DNA from: Minisyncoccota bacterium
GTDB taxonomy: Bacteria; Patescibacteriota; Minisyncoccia; Phycocordibacterales; UBA9973
Length of the DNA: 64,000 bases
Assembly: GCA_043776915.1 (NCBI GenBank)
Contig: JAYVQT010000003.1
Coordinates: forward strand, 26,187 to 90,186
Reading direction: 5' to 3'
The position numbers were made by a program, and so were the translations under genes. Within the stretch, counting starts at the first letter, position 1. Each line of letters opens with the position of its first letter. Below are positions 32,275 to 59,261 of the stretch, one piece after another. The notes under the pieces are model-generated. The model was given only the letters and a program-made list of their open reading frames with translations. It searched no databases and was not told where the DNA came from.

Positions 32275-33129
32275 ATGAGACAATTAAAAATTGTAACACA
32301 GATTACTGACCGTGATTCCCAGGCAGTGGAAAAATACCTTCAAGAAATATCAAAGATATCTATGATTACTCCAGAGGAAGAGCCCATTCTGGCTGAGAAA
32401 ATAAAGACGGGTGATCAACAAGCATTGAATAGATTAGTGAATGCTAATCTTCGTTTCGTAGTCTCGGTCGCCAAGCAGTACCAATACCAAGGATTAACTT
32501 TACCGGATCTGATTAATGAAGGCAACCTGGGGTTAATAAAGGCTGCCCAAAGATTTGATGAAACACGGGGGTTTAAATTCATTTCGTACGCTGTGTGGTG
32601 GATTCGTCAATCTATTTTACAATCTTTAGCCGAGCAAGGCAGGTTAGTGCGTATACCACAAAATAAAATTGGTGCTTATAATAAAGCTCATAAGGCTTAT
32701 ATGTCTTTTGAGCAACAATATGAAAGAGAACCTTCAACCGAGGAATTAGCGGAATTACTGGAAATAAGTGAAACTAAAGTTAATACCATTTTCCAAGGTA
32801 GATCTCATCATACTTCTCTTGATTCCCCTATAAATGAAGAGGGAGATACGAATCTAGGTGATTTACTGCGAAGTGATGACAAAGCCGACGAAGATGTAAT
32901 GCACAACTCATTAAAAGATGAAATCCAGCGAGTTTTGAAATCATTAAGCCCACGAGAAGCAGATATAGTAAATGCTTACTTTGGATTAGATGGAGACGTT
33001 TTGACTCCTGAGCAGATTGGTATAAAATATAATTTGACAAAGGAGCGTGTCCGTCAGATTAAAGAAAGAGCTATCAATCGCCTGAAAAAAGCAGGGTACA
33101 GTAATACTTTAAAAGCATACTTGGGGTAA
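32275..33129 (+). CDS. RNA polymerase sigma-70 family factor (compact; regions 2, 3 and 4 present)
   Basis: Region 2 (LRFVVSVAKQYQYQGLTLPDLINEGNLGLIKAAQRFD...FISYAVWWIRQSI) and a region 4 HTH (TKERVRQIKERAINRLKK). Confidence 0.85.
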   Translation: MRQLKIVTQITDRDSQAVEKYLQEISKISMITPEEEPILAEKIKTGDQQALNRLVNANLRFVVSVAKQYQYQGLTLPDLINEGNLGLIKAAQRFDETRGFKFISYAVWWIRQSILQSLAEQGRLVRIPQNKIGAYNKAHKAYMSFEQQYEREPSTEELAELLEISETKVNTIFQGRSHHTSLDSPINEEGDTNLGDLLRSDDKADEDVMHNSLKDEIQRVLKSLSPREADIVNAYFGLDGDVLTPEQIGIKYNLTKERVRQIKERAINRLKKAGYSNTLKAYLG

Positions 33130-33143
33130 TATCAAAATTTTCA

Positions 33144-33176
33144 AGATATGATGTAGAAATACTCATATCTTTTTTT
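33144..33176 (+). terminator. Rho-independent terminator after the sigma-factor gene
   Basis: Stem agatatga(33144-33151)/tcatatct(33163-33170) followed by a T-run. Confidence 0.6.
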
Positions 33177-34284
33177 ATATCTTAAACTCAATGACATCAC
33201 CATCTTTTACAATATATCCCTTCCCTTCGGTACGCACTTTACCTTTCGAACGAGCTTCACTGTAGGATCCAGCTTTCAGTAGATCACTCCAGAATACAAC
33301 TTCAGCGCGGATAAATTTATCTTTAAAGTCTGTATGAATAGCTGTACCGGCAATAGGTGCAGTGGAGTTATGTTTAATTGTCCAGGCACGAGTCTCATCT
33401 TCACCTGTAGTGAAATAAGTATCAAGACCAAGCAACGTATAACCTTCCGTAATCAAGCGATTAATACCATCATCTTCTCCACCGAGCTCTTTACGGAATA
33501 CTTCTTTCTCTTCTCCTTCAAAATCTTTCAATTCTTCTTCAATCTTGGCATCAAGGACAACATAACACGAACCAGTACTCTCGATATAGTCAGTTAACTC
33601 TTTAAATATTTCTGGATTCATGTCATCCAGATTTTTAGCTCCCCCACGCTTGTTGAGCCCGTAGATAAATGGCTTGAGCGTTAAAAGATTTAGCATTTTA
33701 ATTTTCTCTAATTCCTTTTCATCAAGCTCAACGGTATTAGCAAGCGTACCTTTTTCAAATGCTTGCTCGAGTTTTACTAGTGCACCTTCTTCAAGAATTG
33801 CTTCTTTATCGCCTTTCTTTATATCTTTCTGTAAATTATTCTTCCGCTTCGATACCGTCTCCATATCAGCTAAGATAAGCTCAAGGTTGATGACTTCAAT
33901 ATCACGCAGTGGATCGATATCACCATAGACATGGAGAATCTCATTACCCTTGTCGTTCTTAAGTGGAAAAATACGGACCATTTCAAATATGGCATCAACT
34001 TCGCGAATATTAGCCAGAAACTTATTACCCAGCCCTTCACCTTTCGAAGCGCCAGCCACCAGGCCAGCAATGTCGACAAACTCTATAACTGCTGGAATAG
34101 TTTTTACTGACTTTGAAAATTCTGATAGCTTCCAGAGTCGGGTGTCAGGTACAGGAACAATCCCAACCGCTGGATCAATGGTACAAAATGGGTAATTCTC
34201 AGCCGGTACGCCCTTCTTGGTAAGTGCATTAAAAAGCGTCGATTTACCGACGTTCGGGAGACCTACAATTCCGATACTTAGCAT
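33175..34284 (-). CDS. ychF: Ribosome-binding ATPase YchF (Obg family)
   Basis: GIVGLPNVGKSTLFNALT G1 motif, TGS-like C-terminal domain; 369 aa. Confidence 0.9.
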   Translation of the reverse strand: MLSIGIVGLPNVGKSTLFNALTKKGVPAENYPFCTIDPAVGIVPVPDTRLWKLSEFSKSVKTIPAVIEFVDIAGLVAGASKGEGLGNKFLANIREVDAIFEMVRIFPLKNDKGNEILHVYGDIDPLRDIEVINLELILADMETVSKRKNNLQKDIKKGDKEAILEEGALVKLEQAFEKGTLANTVELDEKELEKIKMLNLLTLKPFIYGLNKRGGAKNLDDMNPEIFKELTDYIESTGSCYVVLDAKIEEELKDFEGEEKEVFRKELGGEDDGINRLITEGYTLLGLDTYFTTGEDETRAWTIKHNSTAPIAGTAIHTDFKDKFIRAEVVFWSDLLKAGSYSEARSKGKVRTEGKGYIVKDGDVIEFKI

Positions 34285-34342
34285 TTTGTGAATATACCAA
34301 AATTTATACTAAAAATCTACTAAAAGTAGAGTACAGTCTGTG

Positions 34343-34381
34343 ATCTAAATAAAACCCTCGCTTTGAATACCAAAGAGAGGG
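34343..34381 (-). terminator. Hairpin plus U-tract on the minus strand in the ychF leader region (possible attenuator)
   Basis: Stem ccctcgctttg/caaagagaggg (34355-34381) with one mismatch. On the minus strand it is followed by ttttattt. It is preceded by a 25-codon ORF (complement 34401-34478). Confidence 0.35.
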
Positions 34382-34517
34382 TGTAATGGTGCGTAACACA
34401 TTATGTATTAAGCGCGTTTAGATCGATCATAATTTCTAAGAAAATTAAATCAGGATCGTTTTCTTTTTCATTAACCATGATAAATTATTTTGTTTAACCA
34501 CATGCGAATATACACAT

Positions 34518-34547
34518 TTACAACAAGATATCACACTTATCTATAAT
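34518..34547 (+). promoter_or_regulatory. Candidate promoter (TTACAA, 18-nt spacer, TATAAT) for the carotenoid-cluster plus-strand genes
   Basis: TTACAA at 34518-34523 and TATAAT at 34542-34547. Confidence 0.35.
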
Positions 34548-34560
34548 ATTCAATACTCAA

Positions 34561-35319
34561 GTGTTATACTATGCGTCTATGAAGAAAAGTATACTCATAT
34601 TCTATAGTGTCTTTATAGTTTGTAGTAGTCTATCACTAGTCTACATACCTCATGTATTTTCCTATCGATATGCATCTGAAATATCAATTATACTTATTCT
34701 TTTTCCATTATTCGTCACGTTACAGCGAGAGTTCGGTATCTACAAAACTATCATACACATCGTCGTGCTTTCAAGTATCTCATTATTCATTGAATACAGA
34801 GGACTCATCACCGGTATGCCGTATGGATTCTTTTCGTACAATACTGCTATACCGAATCAAATACAGCATATTCTCCCATGGACTGTTGGATTATCGTATA
34901 TACCACTCCTCTATGGAGCAGTTGGCTCTGCCTATTATTTTTCTAAAAAACCTTTCCAGGTGCTTTTACTTTCTGTTACCTTTTTACTGATCATCGATAT
35001 CGTTATAGATCCTGCTGCTGTGTCCATCGGCATGTGGACGTACGCTACACATGGATGGTACTACGGAGTACCGTTCCAAAACTTTATCGGATGGATAGTT
35101 TCTAGCACAATTACATCAAGTATCCTCGTACTCCTTATGCGTTCATATCCAAAAGATCATACGATAGCACTAACCTCGAGTATGTATATCAGTCTTGCAT
35201 TATGGGTATATATCGCTCTTATTAAAAATCTGTGGATCCCCGCATGTATAGGCATAGCAGTACTTGGATATCTATTAATGATATACTCAAGAAATGAAAG
35301 AAACACTCAGACAAAGTAG
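34561..35319 (+). CDS. Polytopic membrane protein resembling the carotenoid biosynthesis protein family (CruF-type carotenoid 1,2-hydratase family); putative
   Basis: About 7 TM helices, and a conserved-looking GMWTYATHGWYYGVPFQNFIGW segment similar to the family motif. Directly adjacent to UbiA, crtI, crtB and crtE homologs. Confidence 0.4.
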   Translation: MLYYASMKKSILIFYSVFIVCSSLSLVYIPHVFSYRYASEISIILILFPLFVTLQREFGIYKTIIHIVVLSSISLFIEYRGLITGMPYGFFSYNTAIPNQIQHILPWTVGLSYIPLLYGAVGSAYYFSKKPFQVLLLSVTFLLIIDIVIDPAAVSIGMWTYATHGWYYGVPFQNFIGWIVSSTITSSILVLLMRSYPKDHTIALTSSMYISLALWVYIALIKNLWIPACIGIAVLGYLLMIYSRNERNTQTK

Positions 35320-36121
35320 GCCACGATTCTGGATCTATGTATTTGGGCCATTTATACTCCCCCTTGCGACACTTCACTCACTTCATGAACTATCATTTTC
35401 TATCATTCTTCTTGGTCTGTACTTTACATTTCCTGCCAATATATTTATATATGGCATCAATGATATATATGATAAAGCAACGGACATACTGAATGAAAAA
35501 AAGAAATCATATGAAACAGAAATTTCTCAACAGGCCGAAAGAAAAGTAAAAATCATATTACTCGTTAGCACACTTGCTATTCTTTTGTATAGTATATTTT
35601 TTCTGACTCTTGTCACCACAAGTTCTTTAATTTTTTTTCTTATCTGTGCACATCAATACTCAGCACCTCCACTACGAGCAAAGGCAGTTCCCTTCCTTGA
35701 TAGTATTGTAAGTGGTATCTTGTACACTATTCCGGCATTCATATCTTGGAGTATGATACATACAACTATGCCACCCGTGTGGCCATTTGTGGCTTCATGT
35801 ATATGGTCTATGAGTATGCATGCCTACTCAGCCGTGCCTGATATTGAAGCTGATACACAAGCCCATATACAGACTAGTGCCACACTACTCGGTAAAAACG
35901 TAATGCTTGTGTGTTGTGGAGTATTATTTATAATTGCTACATTACTTGCAGTCCCCTATCTTGGATTTTTTGCATATGGAGCAGGATTAATATATCTTGT
36001 ACTTATTGGAGTATCTCTCGCTACAAACACATCGGGAGCAACATTATACTATTACAAAATGTTTCCACTTGTAAACACTCTTACTGGCTTTGGTATGTTT
36101 ATAACAATGTTATTATCGTAA
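35294..36121 (+). CDS. UbiA-family prenyltransferase (lycopene elongase-like by context)
   Basis: Multi-TM protein with a UbiA-type Asp-rich motif NDIYDKATD and a second Asp-rich region. Sits between the CruF-like and crtI genes. Confidence 0.6.
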   Translation: MKETLRQSRPRFWIYVFGPFILPLATLHSLHELSFSIILLGLYFTFPANIFIYGINDIYDKATDILNEKKKSYETEISQQAERKVKIILLVSTLAILLYSIFFLTLVTTSSLIFFLICAHQYSAPPLRAKAVPFLDSIVSGILYTIPAFISWSMIHTTMPPVWPFVASCIWSMSMHAYSAVPDIEADTQAHIQTSATLLGKNVMLVCCGVLFIIATLLAVPYLGFFAYGAGLIYLVLIGVSLATNTSGATLYYYKMFPLVNTLTGFGMFITMLLS

Positions 36122-37642
36122 CTGATCTTCTGTAAGTGGTTCTGCTGTTTTAATATTCTCAATTCTCTTATACACTAACTCTGCAGATATTAAACATATG
36201 GGCATACCGATACCCGGGTTTGTGCCTGCGCCGGTAAAGTATAAATTCTTTATTTTTTTAGATACATTGTTTGGACGAAATAGTGATGTTTGCATCAGTG
36301 TATGTGCAAGCCCTAATGCTGTGCCTTTAAATGCGTTATAATCTTTTTTAAAATCTTCAACACTATATATTTCTTTAACCAAGATACGCTCGCGTAGATG
36401 TGGGATGTTGCATTCTTTGGCTATCATATCAAGTATCTTATCAGCATATGCTTCTTTGCCAACAACACTTGTATCAAGATCTGACGCAATAGGAACAAGC
36501 ACAAAAAGATTCTCGGTACCTACTGGAGCAATCGTACTATCAGTTTTTGATGGTGCACAAATATAAAATGCTGGGTAGTCAGGCCACTTCGGTTTCTTAA
36601 AAATAGTATCAAAATTTTCCTTCCATGCATCTGGGAAAAAAAGATTGTGATGTGAGAGTGTCGGAATAGTACCCTCAACACCCAAATATAATATAAATGC
36701 ACTTGGAGCGAGTGTTCTCTTATTCCACCATTTCTGTGTGTGTGTACGATATTTTTCTTCAATCAAATTCATCTCTGTATGCTCATAATCCGCATTTGAA
36801 ATTACAATATCAGCATATACTTCAGTATCGTCAGCGAGGACACACCCATATGCAGTACCATCTCTAATAAGAATACGTTTGACCTCTGTATTCAAGTGAA
36901 TAATCGTCCCCTGTTTGGTAGCAATAAGAGCGAGGGCTTTGGGAACTTCATAAATACCACCCTCGGGATACCATACTCCTAAACCGAAGTCGACATAATT
37001 CATAAGTGTATAGATTCCCGGTGTATCAAACGGTGATGTCCCCAGAAGCACTGTTTGATATTGCATCACTTTACGCAACAATTCATTAGTGAATAATTTG
37101 TTAACAATCGTACTTTGTTTTTGAAGTAAGGGAAGCTCACGACCAAGCGTCGCAGTACGCTTGTTCAAAAAGTCAAAAATAGAATCAACATTTTTATACA
37201 TGAATTCATTCTTAGCAATATCATACTGGTATTTTGTTTGTGCAAGAAATTTCTCAAGCACAGCACCTGAACCTTTTTCAAGTGATTCAAATGTATGTTT
37301 ATTTTTTGCCAAGTCTGCATAAAAATCATATGAAGGCTTGCCACCTTGTTGGAAAATACGATATGACGGAGACAGAAGAGACAGCTTCAAGTACTTATGT
37401 ATATCTTCACCGAGAATGGCAAAGAAATCAGCAAAGACATCAGGCATCATATACCAGCTCGGACCTTTATCGAAAATAAAAGTACCTTTGGTTGATTTTT
37501 TTGTAAGTAAACTTGCTCGTCCACCAACCATGTCATTCTTATCATAAAGAGTGACCTCATATCCTTTTTTTGAAAGTAAAGATGCACTTGCAAGTGATGC
37601 AAGTCCTGCTCCGATAATAATAACTGATTTTTTTTTATTTTC
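36113..37642 (-). CDS. crtI: Phytoene desaturase-family FAD-dependent oxidoreductase (CrtI/CrtN-like)
   Basis: N-terminal dinucleotide-binding motif SVIIIGAGLASLASASLL...VGGRA and a C-terminal CrtI-family motif NLYFTGAGTNPGIGMP. The start was set at the internal Met (MENKKKS), giving an 8-nt overlap with crtB. Confidence 0.8.
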   Translation of the reverse strand, partial: ENKKKSVIIIGAGLASLASASLLSKKGYEVTLYDKNDMVGGRASLLTKKSTKGTFIFDKGPSWYMMPDVFADFFAILGEDIHKYLKLSLLSPSYRIFQQGGKPSYDFYADLAKNKHTFESLEKGSGAVLEKFLAQTKYQYDIAKNEFMYKNVDSIFDFLNKRTATLGRELPLLQKQSTIVNKLFTNELLRKVMQYQTVLLGTSPFDTPGIYTLMNYVDFGLGVWYPEGGIYEVPKALALIATKQGTIIHLNTEVKRILIRDGTAYGCVLADDTEVYADIVISNADYEHTEMNLIEEKYRTHTQKWWNKRTLAPSAFILYLGVEGTIPTLSHHNLFFPDAWKENFDTIFKKPKWPDYPAFYICAPSKTDSTIAPVGTENLFVLVPIASDLDTSVVGKEAYADKILDMIAKECNIPHLRERILVKEIYSVEDFKKDYNAFKGTALGLAHTLMQTSLFRPNNVSKKIKNLYFTGAGTNPGIGMPICLISAELVYKRIENIKTAEPLTEDQLR

Positions 37643-38573
37643 CATTTTGTTTTTTGTAAATCCTATTAAATTCATATACTGCACATACCAGATACCATAG
37701 TTTATGAAACGTATTCTCAGATTTCCATATAAATGGATTAAAGTGATTCTGCTCGATACGATCCAATATTCGCTCATACATCCGACCTGCTACGTATACT
37801 GCTAATCGTGTATCTTTTGAAAGAAAACCAAGACCTCTATAGCCCTGTCTATACAATGCCCTTGTTTTACTAACTTCATATTTCATAAGTTCGACAAGTT
37901 CTGAAGTACACTGTTTGTGTGCGATCATATCCATAGTAACATGATATCGATTCATATCTTCATCGGGAATATAGATACGATGTCGTATGGCGTAATCTTC
38001 TTGTATATCACGCAGAAAATTGGTCATCTGCATCCCGTACGCAAGTGATGTCGCATACGTAAGTGCACCATCAGTAAATCCAAAAAAATACGTGAGCATA
38101 TATCCTACTACACCTGCTGAACCATGCATGTAGCCTTCAAGTTCATGATAAGTCGCATAACGAGTGACATGGCTATCTGTTTTCATTGCATACATAAAAT
38201 CGATCGTATATACAAAGGGTATGCGATATTTTTTACACATATCTCTAAAAGTAGACAAAAAGGGAGAATCATTTTGATCTGTATTCCAAATATCTACCCA
38301 CTCCATCTCAAATGCTTTCAGGGCACACAATCCTCCATCTGTATCAGTACTGTATTCTGTATCAATAATTTCATCAGGAATACGAACAAATGCATACAAG
38401 TATTCTACTTCTGTACGAATACGTTTCGGAAGTAATCGGGTTGCTAGAAAGTACCGCATGCTATATTTCTTTTGAAAAAGCTTCGGATTCGCATATGCAT
38501 GCTCTAAATTATTTTGTGCGGTTATAGATAAATTCACAAATGTCATACCATTTCTTTTTCCTTTTAATATCAA
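37635..38573 (-). CDS. crtB: Phytoene/squalene synthase family (CrtB/CrtM-like)
   Basis: Asp-rich motifs YAFVRIPDEIID and NFLRDIQEDYAIRHRIYIPDED. The start may be an internal Met, as the ORF overlaps the crtE 3' end. Confidence 0.8.
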   Translation of the reverse strand: MILKGKRNGMTFVNLSITAQNNLEHAYANPKLFQKKYSMRYFLATRLLPKRIRTEVEYLYAFVRIPDEIIDTEYSTDTDGGLCALKAFEMEWVDIWNTDQNDSPFLSTFRDMCKKYRIPFVYTIDFMYAMKTDSHVTRYATYHELEGYMHGSAGVVGYMLTYFFGFTDGALTYATSLAYGMQMTNFLRDIQEDYAIRHRIYIPDEDMNRYHVTMDMIAHKQCTSELVELMKYEVSKTRALYRQGYRGLGFLSKDTRLAVYVAGRMYERILDRIEQNHFNPFIWKSENTFHKLWYLVCAVYEFNRIYKKQNGK

Positions 38574-39534
38574 TAGGTAATCTCATAATTTGCTTTTGGG
38601 CTTTGGTATAGAGATTCAATTTACGTTCCTCGATATAGGAACATAACCCACTTGCGTATATAACTTCTTGTACCCATGGGAAATCAGCTTCTGTTAAATC
38701 CGCGCCCCACATTCTTTTCATAAATATATTTCTATATTTATGAGGAGCCTGAGTGGTCATATACCATGAGAGTGGTGTATGCTGTTTTTCATTAAAATCC
38801 TGGAAAATATTTTTACCAAGATCTACCGTTCTTGTCGTCACATCAATAAAGTCATCTCCGAGCTGAAATAACTCTCCGAGTATTTCCCCGAGGGCAACGT
38901 ATGCCTTACATGCTTTTGTATCGAGTTTACTAGAGAGAGCCCCAAGCACCATCGGTCGTGCAAATGTATACCTCCCACTTTTTATTTTATTCTTCTCTGA
39001 CACAAGAGTATCATCGATATGAGAACGACGAGGCATATCCGTATCAAGCATTTGGCCGACTGCAAGTTCTGAGACCAGCGTAAAATACGCTAATCCAAGG
39101 GAGTAATTATCTTTACTTGCTTTATATACATGTTCACTTGCCCAGTTAAAGACTAAGTCACCTATCAGTATAGTCTGGTGCAATGCTTGATCTCTACTTA
39201 ATCCATAGGTAGTCTGTAGGTACATCTGTGTCGTAGGTATCCCATGGCGCAATGATGCTTGATCAATAATATCATCATGAATTAAGGCAAATAAATGCAA
39301 GTATTCAATACCAAGCAACAGTTCAGTCGATGCTTTCTTGTTGTGATCAGTACACACCATACTAATAACATATGGGCGAATACGCTTACCATGAGTGGCA
39401 ATTATCTTGATATAATCGATATAATGATGAATAGTAGGATCTGAAGTATATTTTTTTGATCGAGTAATGTTACGCTCGAGTGATGATACAAAAGAGATAT
39501 TAAATTTTTTCTGAAATAGAATTAAATCATGCAT
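38509..39534 (-). CDS. crtE: Polyprenyl diphosphate synthase (GGPP/FPP synthase, CrtE/IdsA-like)
   Basis: FARM LIHDDIID and SARM GDDFID motifs. Confidence 0.8.
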   Translation of the reverse strand: MHDLILFQKKFNISFVSSLERNITRSKKYTSDPTIHHYIDYIKIIATHGKRIRPYVISMVCTDHNKKASTELLLGIEYLHLFALIHDDIIDQASLRHGIPTTQMYLQTTYGLSRDQALHQTILIGDLVFNWASEHVYKASKDNYSLGLAYFTLVSELAVGQMLDTDMPRRSHIDDTLVSEKNKIKSGRYTFARPMVLGALSSKLDTKACKAYVALGEILGELFQLGDDFIDVTTRTVDLGKNIFQDFNEKQHTPLSWYMTTQAPHKYRNIFMKRMWGADLTEADFPWVQEVIYASGLCSYIEERKLNLYTKAQKQIMRLPIDIKRKKKWYDICEFIYNRTK

Positions 39535-39569
39535 ACAATAAAATTGAATATATCACTTTTTACACTTTT

Positions 39570-41402
39570 TTACACCAGTCGATCCTTATACTTAACATAT
39601 GCAAAGGAAGCAGCAAGCGCAATAATACCAAAAACGATAAATGATACAATACGGTACAATTGCCCAAGATTCCACACATCAGTCACGACTTTAATTGCAG
39701 TGATGACAAAGAGTATGAGACCAAATTTTCGTATAAGTGAAATTCTTCGAATGAAACCGATAGCTGTTAGAATGGCCGCATAAATAGCCCATAGGATTGA
39801 GATCGTAATATTAGCAGTATTCTGAATATCAACATTCGTATAATTATATTGCGTATGTGCAATCATATCGATTGCATTATAGTATGAGTATATTTGTAAA
39901 CTCAATGCAAAGAGAGTGAGAATATTTGCAATAACAACATAGACCGTTATACCCGTTTGCTGAATACCAGTCGTGACACTACCATATCTTTTGTAAAAAT
40001 ATGCGATCAGATATGCAGCTATAATCGCGACAACAAAGATATAGAATGTTGAGTTAAAGATCGGTACGAATGACGTCTTCATATCAGTTTGAATATTCCA
40101 CAAGAAAAGATTAAGCCCACCCAAGATGTATACAATAATTCCCATAATTTGGAATCCACGATTATTCATCTTAGATGCGATATAGTAAAGCACACATGAC
40201 TCGACAAACCACAAAGTGGCAATCCATGGACCGGAGAGATGAATGGGAATAGCCACCGAAAAGAAAACCGTAGTTAACCCGGGTAAGAATATATTGAGTG
40301 CAGTATCGGATGGATTCCATATGTGGACAAAGTACGAGAAGATACCGTAAGTGATACCAAGTAAAACTGCTACAAGTCCAATACTATTATGATGCATCGG
40401 CTCAAGAATGATATAGAGTATAAATCCATACATAAGCGCATTGAGTCCAATAATAAAATAGTCACCTTCTTTAGCATTTGTTTTGAGAATCATCAATCTT
40501 GCAACACTCGCTATAAGAAAAATAATAAATGAAACAGTCAGGAATAAAAGAGTCGGACTCAAAAGATCTGGAGTGTAGTGGTTCATATACCAGACAATAA
40601 AATTCATAGCGGTCCCAACAAGAGCAAGTACCGTTACATTGGGCCACTTCTTAAAGAATGAAATAGCAAGAACACCAATATTAAGAATAGTCAGATACAT
40701 AAACAAAGTTCCCATCATATCTATTGGAGATATTAGTAAAAATGGTGTTGCAAATCCACCAACAACGGCAATCATCGAAAGCGTTGTATCTTCATTCCGC
40801 AAACTAAGAACAAAAGCAAGGATGGTCACAAGAAACATCAATACTCCAGTCAGAAACATATCAGTCAGATTATAAAATGAATATGCAGCAAAAAATGAAA
40901 GATAGAGTACTGCTACTCCACCACCCATTAAAAGCTCGGCATATGTCAGGTATTTCCTACGCATATACTGCCCGAGAACCAAGAGTCCGATACCTAGGAA
41001 CACACCTACCATGACTCGCCCAGCGGGACCAATCCAATTATTATCAAACGCATACTTAAGGAAAAAAGCCATACCGACAATAACGGCTCCGATACCAATT
41101 CGACCGAGTAATTGACCAGATACTTCTTCTTGTATTTTTGGTCCCTCCGTCTGAGATATCGATGGCATAGCCGCATTTGGAGTCTGCACTGAAGGTCCGA
41201 CTTGATGGACTGGTATAGTGCTCACAGGAGTTTGCACCGTTGCCACAGGCGCAGGGGGCACTTGTGATGAAGTTGCTTGAACGGATGACTTGTATCCCTC
41301 CGCAACCATATTATTTATTTTTTTTTCTAGATTGGTAATCCGATTACTCTGACCTCTGACAATAATAATGAGAATAATAAGAAGAATGACATCAAATATC
41401 AT
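39570..41402 (-). CDS. Large polytopic membrane protein (about 18 TM), hypothetical (DUF2339-like architecture)
   Basis: 610 aa. N-terminal TM, then a Pro/Val/Thr-rich linker, then many TM helices. Confidence 0.45.
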   Translation of the reverse strand: MIFDVILLIILIIIVRGQSNRITNLEKKINNMVAEGYKSSVQATSSQVPPAPVATVQTPVSTIPVHQVGPSVQTPNAAMPSISQTEGPKIQEEVSGQLLGRIGIGAVIVGMAFFLKYAFDNNWIGPAGRVMVGVFLGIGLLVLGQYMRRKYLTYAELLMGGGVAVLYLSFFAAYSFYNLTDMFLTGVLMFLVTILAFVLSLRNEDTTLSMIAVVGGFATPFLLISPIDMMGTLFMYLTILNIGVLAISFFKKWPNVTVLALVGTAMNFIVWYMNHYTPDLLSPTLLFLTVSFIIFLIASVARLMILKTNAKEGDYFIIGLNALMYGFILYIILEPMHHNSIGLVAVLLGITYGIFSYFVHIWNPSDTALNIFLPGLTTVFFSVAIPIHLSGPWIATLWFVESCVLYYIASKMNNRGFQIMGIIVYILGGLNLFLWNIQTDMKTSFVPIFNSTFYIFVVAIIAAYLIAYFYKRYGSVTTGIQQTGITVYVVIANILTLFALSLQIYSYYNAIDMIAHTQYNYTNVDIQNTANITISILWAIYAAILTAIGFIRRISLIRKFGLILFVITAIKVVTDVWNLGQLYRIVSFIVFGIIALAASFAYVKYKDRLV

Positions 41403-41529
41403 AAAGTATGCGACTGATTAATTATATATACTAGTATATCACAACTATTTTTTATAAACTCTTAATTGTACTAACTGCGACGCCATTAGCCTGGGCCTGA
41501 ATTTTTCTTTATAAGTAAATCAGCGATAG

Positions 41530-41997
41530 CTATTTTATGATCATATCGGGGTTGAATAGGGATTGCTCTTTTTTACATACAGATTTCTCTGGGTCATCAT
41601 AATTCTCACATTGTGAAAAACGAAGAGTAAATACCGTTTGGGTTGTATTGGTTCTATATGTATATGTCGTATACGTACTTCCGGCCGCACCTTCATTTCG
41701 TGTCGTTACACAGTAATGCTTGCCGTGAATGGTCCGCTCAATAGTACGTCCTGTCCCTTCAATCACAGACCCACTAGGCGTACAAGAAAATGCTCTAGTA
41801 AGCGCGGTCACTAGCGGCGGCCAACCCTCTGTGCTCGTTCTGATATATTTTGTATTTAAAAATTTTGAGATAAGTACCACATCACCTTTGACAGGTTCCT
41901 TTACAACCACAGGCGTAAGTTTCCTAGATTGATTAAAAAAGAAAATTCCGACAATAACAACAATCAAAATCCCTATTAAAATTAAAGTTTTTTTCAT
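41530..41997 (-). CDS. Hypothetical secreted/anchored protein
   Basis: N-terminal signal-anchor helix followed by a Cys-containing domain. Confidence 0.35.
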   Translation of the reverse strand: MKKTLILIGILIVVIVGIFFFNQSRKLTPVVVKEPVKGDVVLISKFLNTKYIRTSTEGWPPLVTALTRAFSCTPSGSVIEGTGRTIERTIHGKHYCVTTRNEGAAGSTYTTYTYRTNTTQTVFTLRFSQCENYDDPEKSVCKKEQSLFNPDMIIK

Positions 41998-42023
41998 GTG
42001 TGTTTTAAGAGTTCTTGTCTATT

Positions 42024-42485
42024 TTATCTATTCAAATACGTAATAGTAATCTGCAATACTGTCGCAAATGTTACCCAAATGAGGTATGGAATATTAGCAT
42101 AGATGATCCAAGTAAGACTTGGGGCGCCAGTAGAGATGTGGTTGGTAAGTGAAAATTGATAGAGAGAAAATAATGCCCAGATGAGAGTGATAAGGATGAG
42201 GATGATGTCGATTGATGCGAGGAGGTTATTCTTGAGGCCGAATTGAAAATAAGTAAAAGAGAAATTAAAAATGAGGTTAAGAATAAATGGAAGTGCCACA
42301 ATAACTGGAAGTTCTTTTGTATAGACTTTATAGAACACTGTTCCGAAAGTTACAAATAGTATTGCATAAAGTACAGTCCACACTGGCCCAAAAAGCCATG
42401 AAGGTGGTGCCCAAGATGGCTTAAGGAGAATAGAGTACCAATTGTAAGAATTAGACATAATCAAATAATGCCATACATTAAGCAT
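42024..42485 (-). CDS. tspO: TspO/MBR family (tryptophan-rich sensory protein)
   Basis: KPSWAPPSWLFGPVWTVLY signature and 5 TM helices. Confidence 0.8.
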   Translation of the reverse strand: MLNVWHYLIMSNSYNWYSILLKPSWAPPSWLFGPVWTVLYAILFVTFGTVFYKVYTKELPVIVALPFILNLIFNFSFTYFQFGLKNNLLASIDIILILITLIWALFSLYQFSLTNHISTGAPSLTWIIYANIPYLIWVTFATVLQITITYLNR

Positions 42486-42489
42486 TTTT

Positions 42490-42972
42490 TCAAGATACCG
42501 AAATTATTTGCATTGACTTGAGGCTTTTGCGTATGTCTTTATAATCCGGAATAGTATGTGCAACGAGATCCCAAAAAGCTTGAGAGTGATTGAACTGCCC
42601 AAGGTGACAAAGCTCATGGATGATGATGTAATCGATTTGCTTCTCCGATAGAAATACGATCTTGTAGTTAAAATTTAAATTGCTTTTTTTTGAGCAGCTT
42701 CCCCAGCGAGTCTTGGTGTCACGAATAGCCACACGCCTATAAGTGAAATTATAAGCTTGATTCCAGAACTCAAGCTTGGCGTATACGAGGGTTCGAGCCT
42801 GCTCCTTGTGCTTCATATACCGCGCATTTGGCTTACGAGCCTTCTTTTTTCTTCTTATATTTTTTACTCTCTTTCTAAGAGTACGATAGACGACCGGTTG
42901 GCCATTCAATATCCTTTGAATTGTACCAAGTATACTGTGATGATTTTTCATTCGTTTGATTATAGCAAACAT
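42490..42972 (-). CDS. YgjP-like metal-dependent hydrolase (DUF45, HExxH)
   Basis: IIHELCHL HExxH motif with the downstream FW..V context typical of DUF45/YgjP. Confidence 0.6.
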   Translation of the reverse strand: MFAIIKRMKNHHSILGTIQRILNGQPVVYRTLRKRVKNIRRKKKARKPNARYMKHKEQARTLVYAKLEFWNQAYNFTYRRVAIRDTKTRWGSCSKKSNLNFNYKIVFLSEKQIDYIIIHELCHLGQFNHSQAFWDLVAHTIPDYKDIRKSLKSMQIISVS

Positions 42973-43039
42973 ACGGATATGTTAATAAGAATATTGACTT
43001 TAGTAGATAAATAAGAGATACTAGATTCTAATTTAAGTA

Positions 43040-43288
43040 TTGTTATTTTTAACCAAAAAAACAGGTAGTGCTATGTGTAAATTAAAAAACCCAGAAATTG
43101 AAAAACTCGAAAAGCAAAAAGAAAGCTTACAAAGATCCTTTAGAAATGCCTATGGCCAAACTAGAAAAGATTTACAGCATGAAATAGATGCTGTAAAAGA
43201 AAAAATTCTTAAAGTAAAAACTATCCCCATTCACCCTGTCAACTTTGGTCAGTATCACCAGGGTATTGCATCTATGAGAGCATTTTAG
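43040..43288 (+). CDS. Hypothetical small protein (coiled-coil-like)
   Basis: ORF followed by a strong terminator. The start may be at the internal Met. Confidence 0.35.
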   Translation: MLFLTKKTGSAMCKLKNPEIEKLEKQKESLQRSFRNAYGQTRKDLQHEIDAVKEKILKVKTIPIHPVNFGQYHQGIASMRAF

Positions 43289-43311
43289 TTATCGTGGGAT
43301 TCCAATTTAGG

Positions 43312-43349
43312 GGCGTTCGTTTCATTTGAAACGAACGCCTTTTATATTT
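43312..43349 (+). terminator. Strong rho-independent terminator
   Basis: 13-bp stem ggcgttcgtttca/tgaaacgaacgcc followed by ttttatattt. Confidence 0.65.
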
Positions 43350-43414
43350 GTGTATATAGTAAAATTTTGTAATATATGTAATCGATCGGATAATATTAAT
43401 GATGCTTCACCTAT

Positions 43415-44014
43415 TTGAGTAATTTGCGGTATACTCAAGAAATGAAAATCAGATCAGCCATATTTGTGCGTGGGGTAACAGATGACGACAATCTAATTCG
43501 CGACGGACTACCACAAGTAGCTTTTATCGGGCGCTCAAATGTTGGTAAATCAAGTCTCATAAATACTCTCGTCGGTAATGCTAAACTTGCGCGGTCAAGC
43601 GCTACAGCCGGCCGAACCCAAGAAATCAATTTCTTCTTACTCAATAACTCATTCTACCTCGTCGACCTGCCTGGTTATGGCTACGCTCGTGGCTCATTTG
43701 AAACACGTGGGCTTATCTATGAGCGAATCGAGGGCTACTTATTCAAATCACGTATCAAGCACTATCGTATTGTACTCCTCATTGATGCTAAAGCTGGCAT
43801 GACTGATGCAGATCGCGAAATGTTCAAAGAGCTGACACACTATAAAAAGAATCTCATCGTTGTTATTAATAAAATTGACAAAGTAAACCAAAGTGAAAAA
43901 CAGAAGAATATAAAAGCAATTCAGGAATTCATCGGTAACTACCCTCTTGTAATATGTTCGTCGCAAAAGAAAATTGGCGTCGACGAACTAGCCACCTTGA
44001 TACTTCCTCAGTAA
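43415..44014 (+). CDS. engB: Ribosome biogenesis GTPase EngB/YihA
   Basis: VAFIGRSNVGKSSLIN G1 motif, DLPGYGYA G3 and NKIDK G4 motifs. Confidence 0.85.
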   Translation: MSNLRYTQEMKIRSAIFVRGVTDDDNLIRDGLPQVAFIGRSNVGKSSLINTLVGNAKLARSSATAGRTQEINFFLLNNSFYLVDLPGYGYARGSFETRGLIYERIEGYLFKSRIKHYRIVLLIDAKAGMTDADREMFKELTHYKKNLIVVINKIDKVNQSEKQKNIKAIQEFIGNYPLVICSSQKKIGVDELATLILPQ

Positions 44015-54021: not shown

Positions 54022-56322
54022 TTATTCTAGTACTTTGAGTAATACTTCTTCAGGAACCTCTTTTCCGGCCACACGTTTCTGCCATTGACTACGTGGGATA
54101 TTTTGATTAGATTGATTCGTTTGTACAGAAGGACGTGATACTGCCTCCGGTTCAGATTTTGTTTCTACCGGATCAGGTTTCGGCATTGTAACTGATACGT
54201 TGGTATGAACCGTCACATTATGAATTGGCGTCGGCGCCACTGCTTCTGGTTCTGGTTCTGGAATCGGAATTGCCAGGCGCGTAACTGGAATTTCAACTTT
54301 TAGTGGAACTGGTTCTACGGCCGGTACGGGATGAGCTATTGCTTTCATTAAAAGTTCTTTCAGTGATGCTTTCTTATCTTCGGATGCTTCTTTAGTTGGA
54401 AGATGTATCGCGGTAGTATGATGAGACTTTTTTAATGTCGAAAGAGATACTGGAACAGCTGTAGCAGCTTTGACTGGAATTGCCTGTGGTGAAATTTTCG
54501 GCGCTGACTTTTTATGATCATCTTCAATTTTTTCAAGTAAACCTTTTAAAAGTGGCGATGGACCTACATGCTTACGCTCAACTGGCGTATACGTTGGACG
54601 ATTATTTTGTATTGATGCTCGTGGAGCCGAAGAATTGGTAGTTTTATTTTGTGTTTGCGGCAAAGGATTTAGGGGTACTGAACGCGGAGAACTTGTTGGA
54701 TATTTTTGCTGAATTTGTTGGATAGGTTGAGCGTCTCTGATCGGTCGCTGCGATAGAGCGCTCGGGGCTTTTGCTCCAGTATCAGCAAATTCAATACCAA
54801 GCATTGCAAGCGGTGCAGTTGAATTCTTTTCATCTTGGCGAGCTGAACGCGTAGCCACAAAGCCAGTCTGAGGCTTGAGCTCTCCGCTCTTAATCTTAAA
54901 CATACAATCTTTACAATAGACTGGTCGGCCCTCTTTCGGCTCGAATGGCACCATGGTTACTTTACCGCAGTTTGAGCAGTCAGCTTTAAACTTCGCCGCT
55001 TCATCACCAACTTGGAGCATACCGCTCCACTTTGATATTTCATTTTCAACTTCTTCACGGGGTCGAGCATAAAGCGAACGTGACATATCTATAATCTTTT
55101 CTTTGACTCCAGCTGATGGATCAATCGTCATCGGTGGAAGAGTGCTTGCCGAGAATGGTCGACTGGTTACGCCGTCAATCATGAGCTTCAAGTAGACGTG
55201 GTAGTTCGGCAAATTCACTAAGTCTTGCGCCGTAAACTCAGGCTCAAATTCTTTCTCAATAAATTCGGCATCATCGGCACCAACGCGGAAGATAACCATC
55301 GTGCCGACGTTACCAAAAACAGCATCACGGACTGCTGTACCATTTTCATTCGATAGTTGAGCTGTATACTGGTGAGCAATAATTAAATTGAGGCGATACT
55401 TACGAGCCTCAGAGAGAATGTTGGCAAATGAATCGGTCGCGAAGTTCTGGAATTCGTCAACATAGAGATAGAAATCTTTACGCTCATCTTCGGGAATACG
55501 CACGCGCTCCATGGCGGCGAGCTGAATTTTCGTAATAATCATACCTCCAAGAAGTGCTGAGTTATCTTCACCGACGCGCCCTTTTGAAACGTTCACGAGA
55601 AATATCTTCCCTTCGTTCATGATTTTAAATATATCAATCGTCGACTTTGACTGCCCGACAACATTACGAATAATAGATGTTGAGAGGAATTGGCCAACTT
55701 TGTTCTGAATTGGGGCAATGGCTTCATTACGGAATTGCTCACGCCACTGCTCGTACTCATGAACCCAGAAAGCTTTGACCACTGGATCTTTCAAGTTGCC
55801 GATAATCATCTGGCGATAATCTTTGTCGACAAGCAGACGCGGAATACCAAGGAGTGTCGTACCAGGAGTGTCGAGAAGTGCTAAGATAGCATTATTGAGA
55901 ATGTACTCCATACGAGAACTCCAGGCATTGGCCCAAATCTTTGTAAAAATTCCCATCAATCCTGAAGCGACCAAGTGCTTATACTTTGGATCATCGAGCG
56001 CAATGACATTGAATCCGACATTAAAATCAACATCAGCAGGATTAAAGTAGATGACATCTTTGGCACGATGATCAGGAATCAGATGAAGAATTTCTTCCAC
56101 AAGCTCACCGTGCGGATCCACCACACAAACACCCTCGCCATTATTGATATTCTGAACAATCAGATTTGAAAGGAGGACTGACTTACCTGTACCTGACTTT
56201 CCAAGTACATACATATGCTGACGACGATCGCGTCTCTTGATCCCAAAGGCATTCTTGGTGTTACGAAAATTCGTCCGACCGAAGTAAGTGATGTCTCGAT
56301 TTTGTGGGATATCGTTGTTCAT
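54022..56322 (-). CDS. VirD4/TraG-like (type IV coupling protein-like) P-loop ATPase lacking N-terminal TM, with long disordered C-terminal tail containing a CxxC...CxxC zinc ribbon
   Basis: Walker A VLGKSGTGKS and Walker B plus downstream YLYVDEFQNF...NLIIAHQYTAQL, which match the T4CP family pattern. Paralog of 62397-63875. Tail of about 330 aa rich in P/S/T/K. Confidence 0.6.
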   Translation of the reverse strand: MNNDIPQNRDITYFGRTNFRNTKNAFGIKRRDRRQHMYVLGKSGTGKSVLLSNLIVQNINNGEGVCVVDPHGELVEEILHLIPDHRAKDVIYFNPADVDFNVGFNVIALDDPKYKHLVASGLMGIFTKIWANAWSSRMEYILNNAILALLDTPGTTLLGIPRLLVDKDYRQMIIGNLKDPVVKAFWVHEYEQWREQFRNEAIAPIQNKVGQFLSTSIIRNVVGQSKSTIDIFKIMNEGKIFLVNVSKGRVGEDNSALLGGMIITKIQLAAMERVRIPEDERKDFYLYVDEFQNFATDSFANILSEARKYRLNLIIAHQYTAQLSNENGTAVRDAVFGNVGTMVIFRVGADDAEFIEKEFEPEFTAQDLVNLPNYHVYLKLMIDGVTSRPFSASTLPPMTIDPSAGVKEKIIDMSRSLYARPREEVENEISKWSGMLQVGDEAAKFKADCSNCGKVTMVPFEPKEGRPVYCKDCMFKIKSGELKPQTGFVATRSARQDEKNSTAPLAMLGIEFADTGAKAPSALSQRPIRDAQPIQQIQQKYPTSSPRSVPLNPLPQTQNKTTNSSAPRASIQNNRPTYTPVERKHVGPSPLLKGLLEKIEDDHKKSAPKISPQAIPVKAATAVPVSLSTLKKSHHTTAIHLPTKEASEDKKASLKELLMKAIAHPVPAVEPVPLKVEIPVTRLAIPIPEPEPEAVAPTPIHNVTVHTNVSVTMPKPDPVETKSEPEAVSRPSVQTNQSNQNIPRSQWQKRVAGKEVPEEVLLKVLE

Positions 56323-57950: not shown

Positions 57951-59261
57951 CTATGTAAATCCTCCAGCAAGGGCTTGTTCTTTTGAAAGTGGCATAAATA
58001 TTTGGCCTTGTGTTTCGTTATATCCAAAAGGAGAAAGTAGTGAAGGAAAAAATTCGCCATATTCAGATGTTTTTTTCATATGTTCAATTAATTTATTTTT
58101 GAGTAACTCATACTCATCTTTTTCGTACGGTCTATTTAAAATACAATAATTTGATTTTTTTAACCCAACACAACCAAAAAGATTTTGAGAATTATGGCAT
58201 GAATCACAATATTCAATAAAAATATCGTCCCATGAAAGATGCGAGAACTTAGTATAGGATGAATTAGACATTGCATGAGATTCATAAATCATCATCCCTA
58301 TGCCTACACTAAATATATCCATAGCGTCTTTCACTTCTGCAGTTGCTACTGAATACTTAATAGTATCAGAAGCAAAGATATCAAAATCATTATGACAATT
58401 CTTTGAATTATATATTACATCACCAGAAACATTTACAGACCTTTCTATTTGACCATAGCGATGCAACGCGTTAGTTTTTAACATTTCTTTCCATTGAGCA
58501 TATAGACTACTTCTTGTTTGGAAAGAATCTAAGTTGTATTTTTCCATACGTACCATATATTCTTCTTTTGTGTATTGCGTATTTAAAATACAGTATTTTT
58601 TATTACGCAAATTATATGACATAAAGCAATCTGAACAATTTCTACAATCGTAACAGTATGAGCAATTTATAGAATCATGTGTCAGGAGACAAAACTGACA
58701 ATTATAATCTCTATCGCAAGAAATACATTCATAAAGGAAGGTTCCCTTATCGATAATCATATTGCAATCACATGATTCACTTACATGATTCCAACAATTA
58801 CTTGAATAAAGAACATTCTCACTATTAAAAACATCAAAGCATAAATAACAATTTTTGTTATCTTGGGAATGATTAGTGTATTCACTTTGTATTGAATTTT
58901 TAGATAATAATGCAACACGAGGAACTTTTAATTGTAACTCTAAAAACTGCTCAAAAAATGGGCGAGAAAAATCTATTTCTTGTGCAAAATCTTTTGCATC
59001 CCAACTATCACCCCACCAACAAGCTGAACAATACACTTTAAACGGAGACAGAGGATTATAAATAGTGACAGTTGATTTAGTACATAAATCACAATTCCTT
59101 CGATATAAAGTCCTTTCATTACGCCAAGAATAGCGACGGCGTTGCCTGCAGTCCGGGCAAAATGTCGGTGGTGGTACCTTCATCTTCTCGTAAAAACCGA
59201 AGTCATCCGGTTCGATTGTGAAGTCTTTTTTGCAGTTTTGGCAGGTTTTTGTTTCTTGCAT
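57951..59261 (-). CDS. Cys-rich modular protein (N-terminal zinc ribbon plus internal tandem CxxC-type repeats); N-terminal 436-aa part of a gene split by an in-frame TAG
   Basis: N-terminal CQNCKKDFTIEPDDFGFYEKMKVPPPTFCPDCR. Repeats such as NCWNHVSESCDCN, ECISCDRDYNCQFC and CSYCYDCRNCSDC. The N-terminus is near-identical to paralog 59736-61454. Confidence 0.55.
   Translation of the reverse strand: MQETKTCQNCKKDFTIEPDDFGFYEKMKVPPPTFCPDCRQRRRYSWRNERTLYRRNCDLCTKSTVTIYNPLSPFKVYCSACWWGDSWDAKDFAQEIDFSRPFFEQFLELQLKVPRVALLSKNSIQSEYTNHSQDNKNCYLCFDVFNSENVLYSSNCWNHVSESCDCNMIIDKGTFLYECISCDRDYNCQFCLLTHDSINCSYCYDCRNCSDCFMSYNLRNKKYCILNTQYTKEEYMVRMEKYNLDSFQTRSSLYAQWKEMLKTNALHRYGQIERSVNVSGDVIYNSKNCHNDFDIFASDTIKYSVATAEVKDAMDIFSVGIGMMIYESHAMSNSSYTKFSHLSWDDIFIEYCDSCHNSQNLFGCVGLKKSNYCILNRPYEKDEYELLKNKLIEHMKKTSEYGEFFPSLLSPFGYNETQGQIFMPLSKEQALAGGFT
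59164..59244. repeat. 81-nt segment identical to 61360-61440 (5' ends of the two Cys-rich paralog genes)
   Basis: Character-by-character comparison shows 81/81 identical. Confidence 0.85.

Follow-up and report, generated by a model that had tools for sequence, protein, structure and literature searches.

In the haloarchaeon Haloarcula japonica, the genes c0507, c0506 and c0505 encode CrtD, LyeJ and CruF, respectively (Yang et al. 2015, as cited in PMC11946383). C0507 has been shown experimentally to be a bifunctional CrtI/CrtD, with C0506 being LyeJ and C0505 CruF; a mutant that lacks c0507 accumulates tetrahydrobisanhydrobacterioruberin (TH-BABR) and dihydroisopentenyldehydrorhodopin (DH-IDR), and the authors suggest a bifunctional enzyme, too, for bacteria that make bacterioruberin with just one CrtI (PMC11946383). 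In Escherichia coli, no activity was obtained from the haloarchaeal CrtI/CrtD enzymes (PMC11946383). A lye-crtD-cruF set is present in pink Arthrobacter (A. agilis, A. bussei), in which the pigment has been demonstrated and a role in cold adaptation of the membrane proposed (PMC9122864). The genes lyeJ, crtD and cruF have also been reported in Patescibacteria from Lake Baikal, with bacterioruberin inferred as their product and, again, a role in the membrane in the cold proposed (Haro-Moreno et al. 2023, PMC9948471). Here we describe a stretch of 64,000 nt from a Minisyncoccota bacterium (contig JAYVQT010000003.1; hereafter the window), in which five overlapping genes, designated cruF, lyeJ, crtI, crtB and crtE, probably provide a Nomurabacteria-like Parcubacterium with a complete, self-contained route to an acyclic carotenoid of the C50, bacterioruberin type.

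As read from the genes, the most likely function of the five enzymes is the synthesis of bacterioruberin, or of a close anhydro or dihydro relative, from geranylgeranyl diphosphate (GGPP), and the enzymatic steps and final product that we infer are as follows. The prenyl diphosphate synthase (CrtE) would make GGPP, CrtB would join two GGPP molecules to give phytoene and a single desaturase of the CrtI/CrtD type would convert phytoene to lycopene. The LyeJ-type enzyme, a member of the UbiA family, would bind dimethylallyl diphosphate (DMAPP) via two aspartate-rich Mg2+ sites, add a C5 unit at C-2 of each end of lycopene and hydrate C-1. The same desaturase would then introduce the 3,4 and 3',4' double bonds, and the CruF-type protein would hydrate the added C5 units, resulting in bacterioruberin or its mono- or bis-anhydro forms. 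Bacterioruberin has 13 conjugated double bonds, the formula C50H76O4 and a mass of about 741 Da, and its absorption has three peaks, near 465, 495 and 525-530 nm. Such a pigment would likely serve as a membrane-spanning reinforcer and as an antioxidant or photoprotectant.

Gene organization and predicted enzymes

Five intact, long open reading frames (ORFs) fill positions 34561-39534 without intergenic space (Table 1), and each has a strong family match, in agreement with the five contiguous carotenoid-type genes claimed in a preliminary description of this DNA. The presence of five such genes, with these family matches and overlapping junctions, is far beyond chance. The overlaps are 26 nt (cruF/lyeJ), 9 nt (lyeJ/crtI, 36113-36121), 11 nt (crtI/crtB) and 38 nt (crtB/crtE), so that cruF, lyeJ and crtI are contiguous and physically clustered. 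The two groups of genes, initially described as divergent, are in fact convergent, with lyeJ and crtI overlapping at their 3'-ends and cruF-lyeJ on the forward strand converging on crtE-crtB-crtI on the reverse strand. Translation starts were chosen with the help of gene calls on three independent metagenome contigs that are 100% identical to the window, in which the proteins have 246, 275, 510/520, 303 and 341 amino acids (aa). The CruF-like protein, previously given as 252 aa from a GTG at 34561, is more likely the 246-aa product of the ATG at 34579. The desaturase ORF extends over 36113-37777 and that of the phytoene synthase over 37635-38573, with likely starts at 37645 and 38546, respectively.

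Table 1. Positions, strands and identifying features of the cassette genes, the genes upstream of crtE and the CruF fusions of Acidobacteriota; positions without a locus name refer to the window
Feature	Coordinates	Strand	Remarks
cruF-like	34579-35319	+	246 aa; PF04240 Caroten_synth 126 bits, E 2.5e-36
lyeJ-like UbiA prenyltransferase	35294-36121	+	275 aa; PF01040 UbiA 81 bits, NF009516 219.8 bits
crtI/crtD-type desaturase	36113-37645	-	510 aa; TIGR02734 crtI_fam 467 bits
crtB, predicted phytoene synthase	37635-38546	-	303 aa; PF00494 SQS_PSY 191 bits
crtE/idsA-like short-chain prenyl diphosphate synthase	38509-39534	-	341 aa; PF00348 polyprenyl_synt 117 bits
DUF2339 membrane protein	39570-41402	-	Pfam; upstream of crtE
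155-aa hypothetical protein	41530-41997	-	upstream of crtE
TspO	42024-42485	-	Pfam; three genes from crtE
CruF-Idi fusion	L004:6514-7857; L014:6662-8041	-	ORFs of comparable length in most of the Acidobacteriota loci from L006 to L026

On the NCBIfam model NF009516, the UbiA protein scores 219.8 bits, above the cut-off of 205. As the model is named simply 'prenyltransferase', it was calibrated with control proteins. Two cluster prenyltransferases from haloarchaeal replicons annotated crtI-prenyltransferase-cruF (Halocatena and Halarchaeum) score 426 and 397 bits on NF009516. On NF009608, which models CrtEb-type enzymes, the window protein reaches 115.6 bits, below the cut-off of 217, compared with 467 bits for the CrtEb-type protein of an Arthrobacter locus that, to judge by its gene layout, is a decaprenoxanthin-type cluster. 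These control scores therefore argue that the window protein is LyeJ-type and not CrtEb-type. It shares 37% identity with the Halocatena cluster prenyltransferase over 264 aa, and 27.6% with the Arthrobacter CrtEb-type protein. An identity of 37% is compatible with LyeJ function as the Lye of bacterioruberin-producing Arthrobacter and that of Halobacterium are equally distant (36-37% identity; PMC9122864). Both aspartate-rich motifs (NDxxDxxxD and DxxxD) are intact, with NDIYDKATD and DIEAD aligning with the haloarchaeal NDIFDADID and DIEPD. Models for enzymes of quinone and chlorophyll synthesis score below 50 bits and far below their cut-offs (TIGR01474, 39; MqnP, 19; ChlG, 43) and, with NF009516 passed, the protein falls outside the quinone prenyltransferases. 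The predicted lyeJ product is a lycopene C5-elongase and 1,2-hydratase that uses DMAPP.

The best match of the desaturase, at 578 bits, is the haloarchaeal bifunctional CrtI/CrtD model NF058655 (CrtID; bifunctional phytoene desaturase/3,4-desaturase). The enzyme also passes the subfamily model TIGR02734, with 467 bits versus a cut-off of 238. This order of scores is that of the haloarchaeal cluster desaturases used as controls (750 bits on NF058655 versus 490 on TIGR02734) and is reversed in an ordinary actinobacterial CrtI (453 versus 553 bits). Related desaturases also have the haloarchaeal score order, with 613 and 641 bits on NF058655 for two from the candidate phyla radiation (CPR), the latter from locus L023, and 617 bits for an acidobacterial enzyme. 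The best matches to solved structures are CrtD (4rep, 209 bits) and CrtI (4dgk, 192 bits). The window desaturase is predicted to convert phytoene to lycopene and to carry out the 3,4-desaturations.

Membership of the CruF-like protein in the carotenoid biosynthesis family, proposed when the protein was first noted, is borne out by PF04240 (126 bits versus a Pfam cut-off of 25). Its best NCBIfam models, both below cut-off, are those of bisanhydrobacterioruberin hydratase, TIGR03460 (106 bits) and NF041333 (90 bits), and NF045693, the cyanobacterial model for the CruF that acts on gamma-carotene, scores only 50 bits. It is 36% identical to a haloarchaeal CruF over a 126-aa core. A word-indexed search with the protein returned just nine matches, because it evolves fast. 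The cruF product is predicted to be a polytopic membrane 2'',3''-hydratase that acts on the added C5 units.

GGPP is kept out of the C30 synthase CrtM by steric hindrance from F26 and F233, and the variants F26A, F26S and F26L make phytoene (PMC13304436). Alignments to solved structures place Thr36 of the window synthase at the F26 position and Leu242 at the F233 position. This pair of gate residues is invariant in all of the aligned cluster-linked synthases, haloarchaeal and actinobacterial included, whereas Phe is kept at the F26 position in all three aligned C30 synthases (Staphylococcus aureus CrtM, 8is6 CrtM and 5iys). The window synthase shares the motif LATRLLP, letter for letter, with the haloarchaeal cluster synthases, and its aspartate-rich motifs DEIID and DIQED line up with those of the reference proteins. 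By its gate residues the enzyme is predicted to be a C40 phytoene synthase, CrtB, and the C30 alternative is disfavoured. All of its NCBIfam scores are below cut-off, namely HpnC (151 bits versus 250), HpnD (128 versus 279) and CrtB (123 versus 550). The haloarchaeal cluster synthases, as controls, also match HpnD and HpnC best and below cut-off, and such matches are therefore not diagnostic of a squalene route. There is a single SQS_PSY synthase in the cluster, rather than the pair that with HpnE makes up an HpnCDE set, and the HpnE model reaches 40 bits (cut-off 283), confined to an N-terminal nucleotide-binding stretch (residues 52-98).

Under the classical chain-length rule, a DDIID motif without insertion, preceded by Phe at position -5 and a small residue at -4, is the pattern of archaeal-type GGPP synthases. 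The window prenyl diphosphate synthase has such an uninterrupted DDIID, preceded by Phe (-5) and Ala (-4), and its second motif is DDFID. On the model NF041003 (GGPP_syn) it scores 94 bits versus a cut-off of 500. Its matches among solved structures have mixed chain lengths, with the Corynebacterium glutamicum GGPP synthase (3lk5) among the best, and comparisons with solved structures leave both the chain length of this enzyme and the identity of the phytoene synthase unsettled. Its predicted product is GGPP, a chain length that we infer from the motifs.

Host and distribution of the cassette

The LepA encoded in the window shares a 90% cluster with a protein of 'Candidatus Nomurabacteria bacterium', a name within the Parcubacteria group of Patescibacteria. 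Samples rich in this organism include SRR22198270, SRR23617272 and SRR23617274. All five genes recur, with their internal order unchanged, in L030, a Nomurabacteria metagenome-assembled genome (GCA_037139835.1). In both, the cassette adjoins ychF (33175-39534 in the window, 9280-15511 in L030), which is 82% identical, and the flanks are syntenic, with ychF followed by genes for Sua5, a hypothetical protein, leucyl-tRNA synthetase and a TPR protein. The L030 cassette is inverted relative to ychF when compared with the window. Based on this synteny on the ychF side, the cluster is therefore considered resident and vertically kept in the lineage, and not a contaminant. Recent transfer or contamination was considered and rejected, given that the G+C content of the gene block (36-37%) equals that of its flanks and that the cassette lies beside ychF in a syntenic Nomurabacteria genome.

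Within the Patescibacteria, the cassette recurs in contigs L023 (Magasanikiibacteriota), L030, L034 and L036 ('Patescibacteria group'), with L034 proteins clustering with Nomurabacteria sequences. Homologues of the desaturase form more than 120 distinct clusters at 90% identity, 55-79% identical to the window enzyme, and those clusters with informative taxon names are all from Paceibacterota or Pacebacteria. These sequences speak for such cassettes being common among Parcubacteria. Blastocatellia-type Acidobacteriota and Abditibacteriaceae likewise keep the core arrangement, in which cruF and lyeJ converge on crtI-crtB. The conservation of the cassette is thus established, as are the gene content of the block, the intact catalytic motifs and the family assignments. 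In the Acidobacteriota, CruF is fused C-terminally to a type-1 isopentenyl-diphosphate isomerase (Idi) of the NUDIX family (NF002995, 210.8 bits versus 127; Table 1). A CruF-Idi fusion beside a LyeJ-type elongase fits a pathway that would consume DMAPP. The NUDIX genes in the neighbourhood of the CPR cassettes do not resemble Idi.

Neighbour-joining trees set the bacterial sequences apart from those of haloarchaea and do not recover the Patescibacteria as monophyletic. The sole strongly supported signal is the grouping of the window-clade desaturase with those of Acidobacteriota, at 100% bootstrap. This tree pattern, together with the distribution, points to lateral exchange of the cassette, the direction of which is not given by the trees. 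We tentatively suggest that many Parcubacteria (Paceibacterota) may make a membrane-spanning C50 carotenoid, with the five-gene cassette having been exchanged with Blastocatellia-type Acidobacteriota and Abditibacteriota. Literature searches found no CPR report beyond that from Lake Baikal (PMC9948471) and none for Acidobacteria; bacterioruberin had not been reported, in the publications so retrieved, for Parcubacteria, Blastocatellia-type Acidobacteriota or Abditibacteriota.

Alternative products

The exact end product is the main uncertainty, as the CruF-like protein and the desaturase are both below equivalog cut-offs and the prediction is made from genes alone. Several observations weigh against a complete bacterioruberin-type pathway. 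The CruF-like protein falls short of 154.7 bits on TIGR03460 and of 300 bits on NF041333, and forms a long branch in the neighbour-joining tree, and the desaturase falls short of the 640 bits set for NF058655. The pathway as read takes its one desaturase to be bifunctional, and another desaturase may be encoded beyond the window. It also presupposes a supply of isopentenyl diphosphate and DMAPP. No carotenoid chemistry was found for any CPR organism or for the related bacterial cassettes. Three related loci, L033, L037 (a 790-kb contig) and L038 (Paceibacterota), have the cassette without a CruF-family gene adjoining the UbiA gene; in these genomes, cruF may be located elsewhere or absent. In contig L035, cruF-lyeJ is kept and the desaturase is reduced to its C-terminal 232 aa (L035:8832-9530), indicative of decay, and at L032:2565-3460 crtB is split into two ORFs, possibly by a frameshift or a sequencing error. 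Given the absence of an adjacent cruF and the decay in these relatives, the pathway is evidently not uniformly maintained. The deep nodes of the neighbour-joining trees are also unsupported, with bootstrap values of 13-55%.

Several of these observations would be accommodated by a pathway of the same type that ends in a less desaturated or less hydrated C45 or C50 product, such as tetrahydrobisanhydrobacterioruberin, bisanhydrobacterioruberin or a mono-elongated C45 carotenoid. This would arise if the desaturase lacked 3,4-activity or if the divergent CruF acted differently, as could be the case given the scores of both proteins below their equivalog cut-offs, the long branch of CruF and the relatives without an adjacent cruF; the accumulation of TH-BABR and DH-IDR in the Haloarcula c0507 mutant (PMC11946383) documents products of this kind. 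The score pattern of the window desaturase is, however, that of the haloarchaeal cluster desaturases, and the 26-nt overlap of an intact cruF with lyeJ suggests that their expression is coupled. On balance, we consider such a product unlikely.

It is very improbable that the cassette directs the synthesis only of an acyclic C40 hydroxy-carotenoid, with CruF acting as a 1,2-hydratase on lycopene and the UbiA protein prenylating some other membrane acceptor. The bacterial gamma-carotene CruF enzymes that have been characterised are C-1',2' hydratases, the activity modelled by NF045693, and the bacterial members of NF009516 that were found carry no specific functional annotation or measured pigment. 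The window CruF, however, scores 50 bits on that model versus 106 and 90 on the bacterioruberin-type models, the UbiA gene has a fixed place between cruF and crtI in four phyla, and its product passes the cut-off of a model that is matched by haloarchaeal cluster prenyltransferases. A C30 diapocarotenoid (CrtM/CrtN) pathway or an HpnCDE-type squalene route, to which the best NCBIfam matches of the synthase (HpnC and HpnD) and its best solved-structure matches (C30 synthases) might point, is hardly credible given that the Hpn matches are below cut-off and shared by the haloarchaeal cluster synthases, that there is a single SQS_PSY gene and no HpnE, that Thr and Leu occupy the gate positions at which CrtM has Phe, and that the chain-length region of the linked prenyl synthase is of the GGPP type.

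The CruF, UbiA, desaturase and synthase results all favour the C50, bacterioruberin-like gene set proposed in the preliminary description, and neither a squalene-route affiliation of the synthase and desaturase nor a quinone-type UbiA protein, the findings that would have spoken against it, was encountered. In this CPR bacterium with its tiny genome, the five adjoining genes look sufficient for a C50 carotenoid that is red and spans the membrane. If so, the pigment would become the first carotenoid measured in a CPR bacterium, and CPR cells, generally thought to be lipid scavengers, would make their own membrane reinforcer rather than take one from a host. The occurrence of bacterioruberin-type pigments would also extend far beyond haloarchaea and a few Actinobacteria, which matters for the interpretation of pigment biomarkers and for the understanding of adaptation to cold or oxidative stress. 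At just 5 kb, the block is a compact and easily testable construct for heterologous expression.

Flanking features and comparison with described systems

Upstream of crtE, the genes for a DUF2339 protein, a hypothetical protein and TspO follow on the same strand (Table 1), separated by gaps of 35, 127 and 26 nt, and may be co-transcribed with crtE-crtB-crtI; their membership in the pathway is uncertain. A TspO that is 72% identical is encoded at L033:3569-3970, two genes from lyeJ; besides L033, tspO was not found in the other related loci checked, and the DUF2339 and 155-aa proteins were found in none of the other loci compared. The position of tspO in the window recalls that of tspO/crtK inside the crt cluster of Rhodobacter. 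In the three related loci in which no CruF-family gene adjoins lyeJ, its neighbour encodes a 284-aa protein whose transmembrane C-terminus is YgaP-like (L033:3979-4833), a 248-aa soluble protein (L037:9426-10172) or a 159-aa membrane protein (L038:9372-9851). The latter two have no Pfam match, and no similarity among the three is detectable.

A scan of positions 33000-43500 for promoters and terminators identified 49 promoter-like sites versus 43.6 expected, and so was uninformative, and no clear Shine-Dalgarno sequences were seen upstream of the cluster genes. A TATAAT box is positioned 33 nt upstream of the cruF ATG. The divergent genes ychF and cruF are 294 nt apart, and this spacer contains a 27-nt hairpin (34355-34381; CCCTCGCTTTG ... 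CAAAGAGAGGG, with imperfect complementarity) that has no Rfam match; an Rfam scan of the window found five tRNAs and nothing else. There is no rhodopsin among the uncharacterised membrane proteins of the window that were scanned (PrsW, DUF2214, DUF2339 and TspO), and neither a rhodopsin nor brp/blh was seen in the parts of the window examined. Elsewhere, adjacent paralogous Cys-rich proteins of 436 aa (57951-59261, reverse strand) and 572 aa (59736-61454, reverse strand) have an almost identical N-terminal segment (CQNCKKDFTIEPDDFGFYEKMKVPPPT). Two paralogous ATPases (54022-56322 and 62397-63875, both on the reverse strand) resemble, by eye, TraG/VirD4-like coupling proteins of type IV secretion systems, the larger with a long, low-complexity, Pro-rich tail.

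As in the Haloarcula japonica crtI/crtD-lyeJ-cruF cluster, the same three enzyme families are encoded by adjoining genes in the window. The likeness to the haloarchaeal clusters extends to UbiA proteins that pass NF009516, with the window protein 37% identical to a haloarchaeal cluster prenyltransferase, to NF058655 as the best model for the desaturase, to an identical LATRLLP motif and to the expectation of one desaturase for both jobs. The haloarchaeal order is, however, crtI-lyeJ-cruF on one strand whereas in the window cruF-lyeJ converges on crtE-crtB-crtI, and the window block, unlike the Haloarcula japonica cluster, includes crtB and a gene for a predicted GGPP synthase. Unlike the haloarchaeal proteins, the window CruF and desaturase fall below equivalog cut-offs, and the host is a small-genome bacterium rather than a halophilic archaeon. 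The Arthrobacter bacterioruberin set is also bacterial, with a Lye that is as distant from the haloarchaeal enzyme (36-37% identity) as is the window protein. It differs in having separate crtI and crtD genes and a demonstrated pigment, whereas the window has one desaturase and is known from its genes alone. The actinobacterial decaprenoxanthin pathway with CrtEb and CrtYe/Yf (PMC3598387) likewise employs a UbiA-family lycopene elongase after crtE-crtB-crtI, but the window protein scores 115.6 bits on NF009608 versus 467 for the Arthrobacter CrtEb-type protein and, as its genes overlap, the window cluster has no room for the small C50 cyclase subunits encoded by crtYe/Yf.

The closest precedent is in the Patescibacteria from Lake Baikal, members of the same superphylum with the same three marker genes, from which the same product was inferred (PMC9948471). 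The Lake Baikal genes are unclustered, with cruF far from lyeJ and crtD or with the genes on separate reads, whereas those of the window are part of an overlapping, five-gene block of 5 kb that starts with GGPP synthesis. Pigment genes are not, therefore, unexpected in a CPR genome, as had initially been thought, lyeJ, crtD and cruF having been reported in Patescibacteria in 2023 and homologues of the desaturase being numerous. Given that report, the window cluster is a new and unusually complete case of something known.

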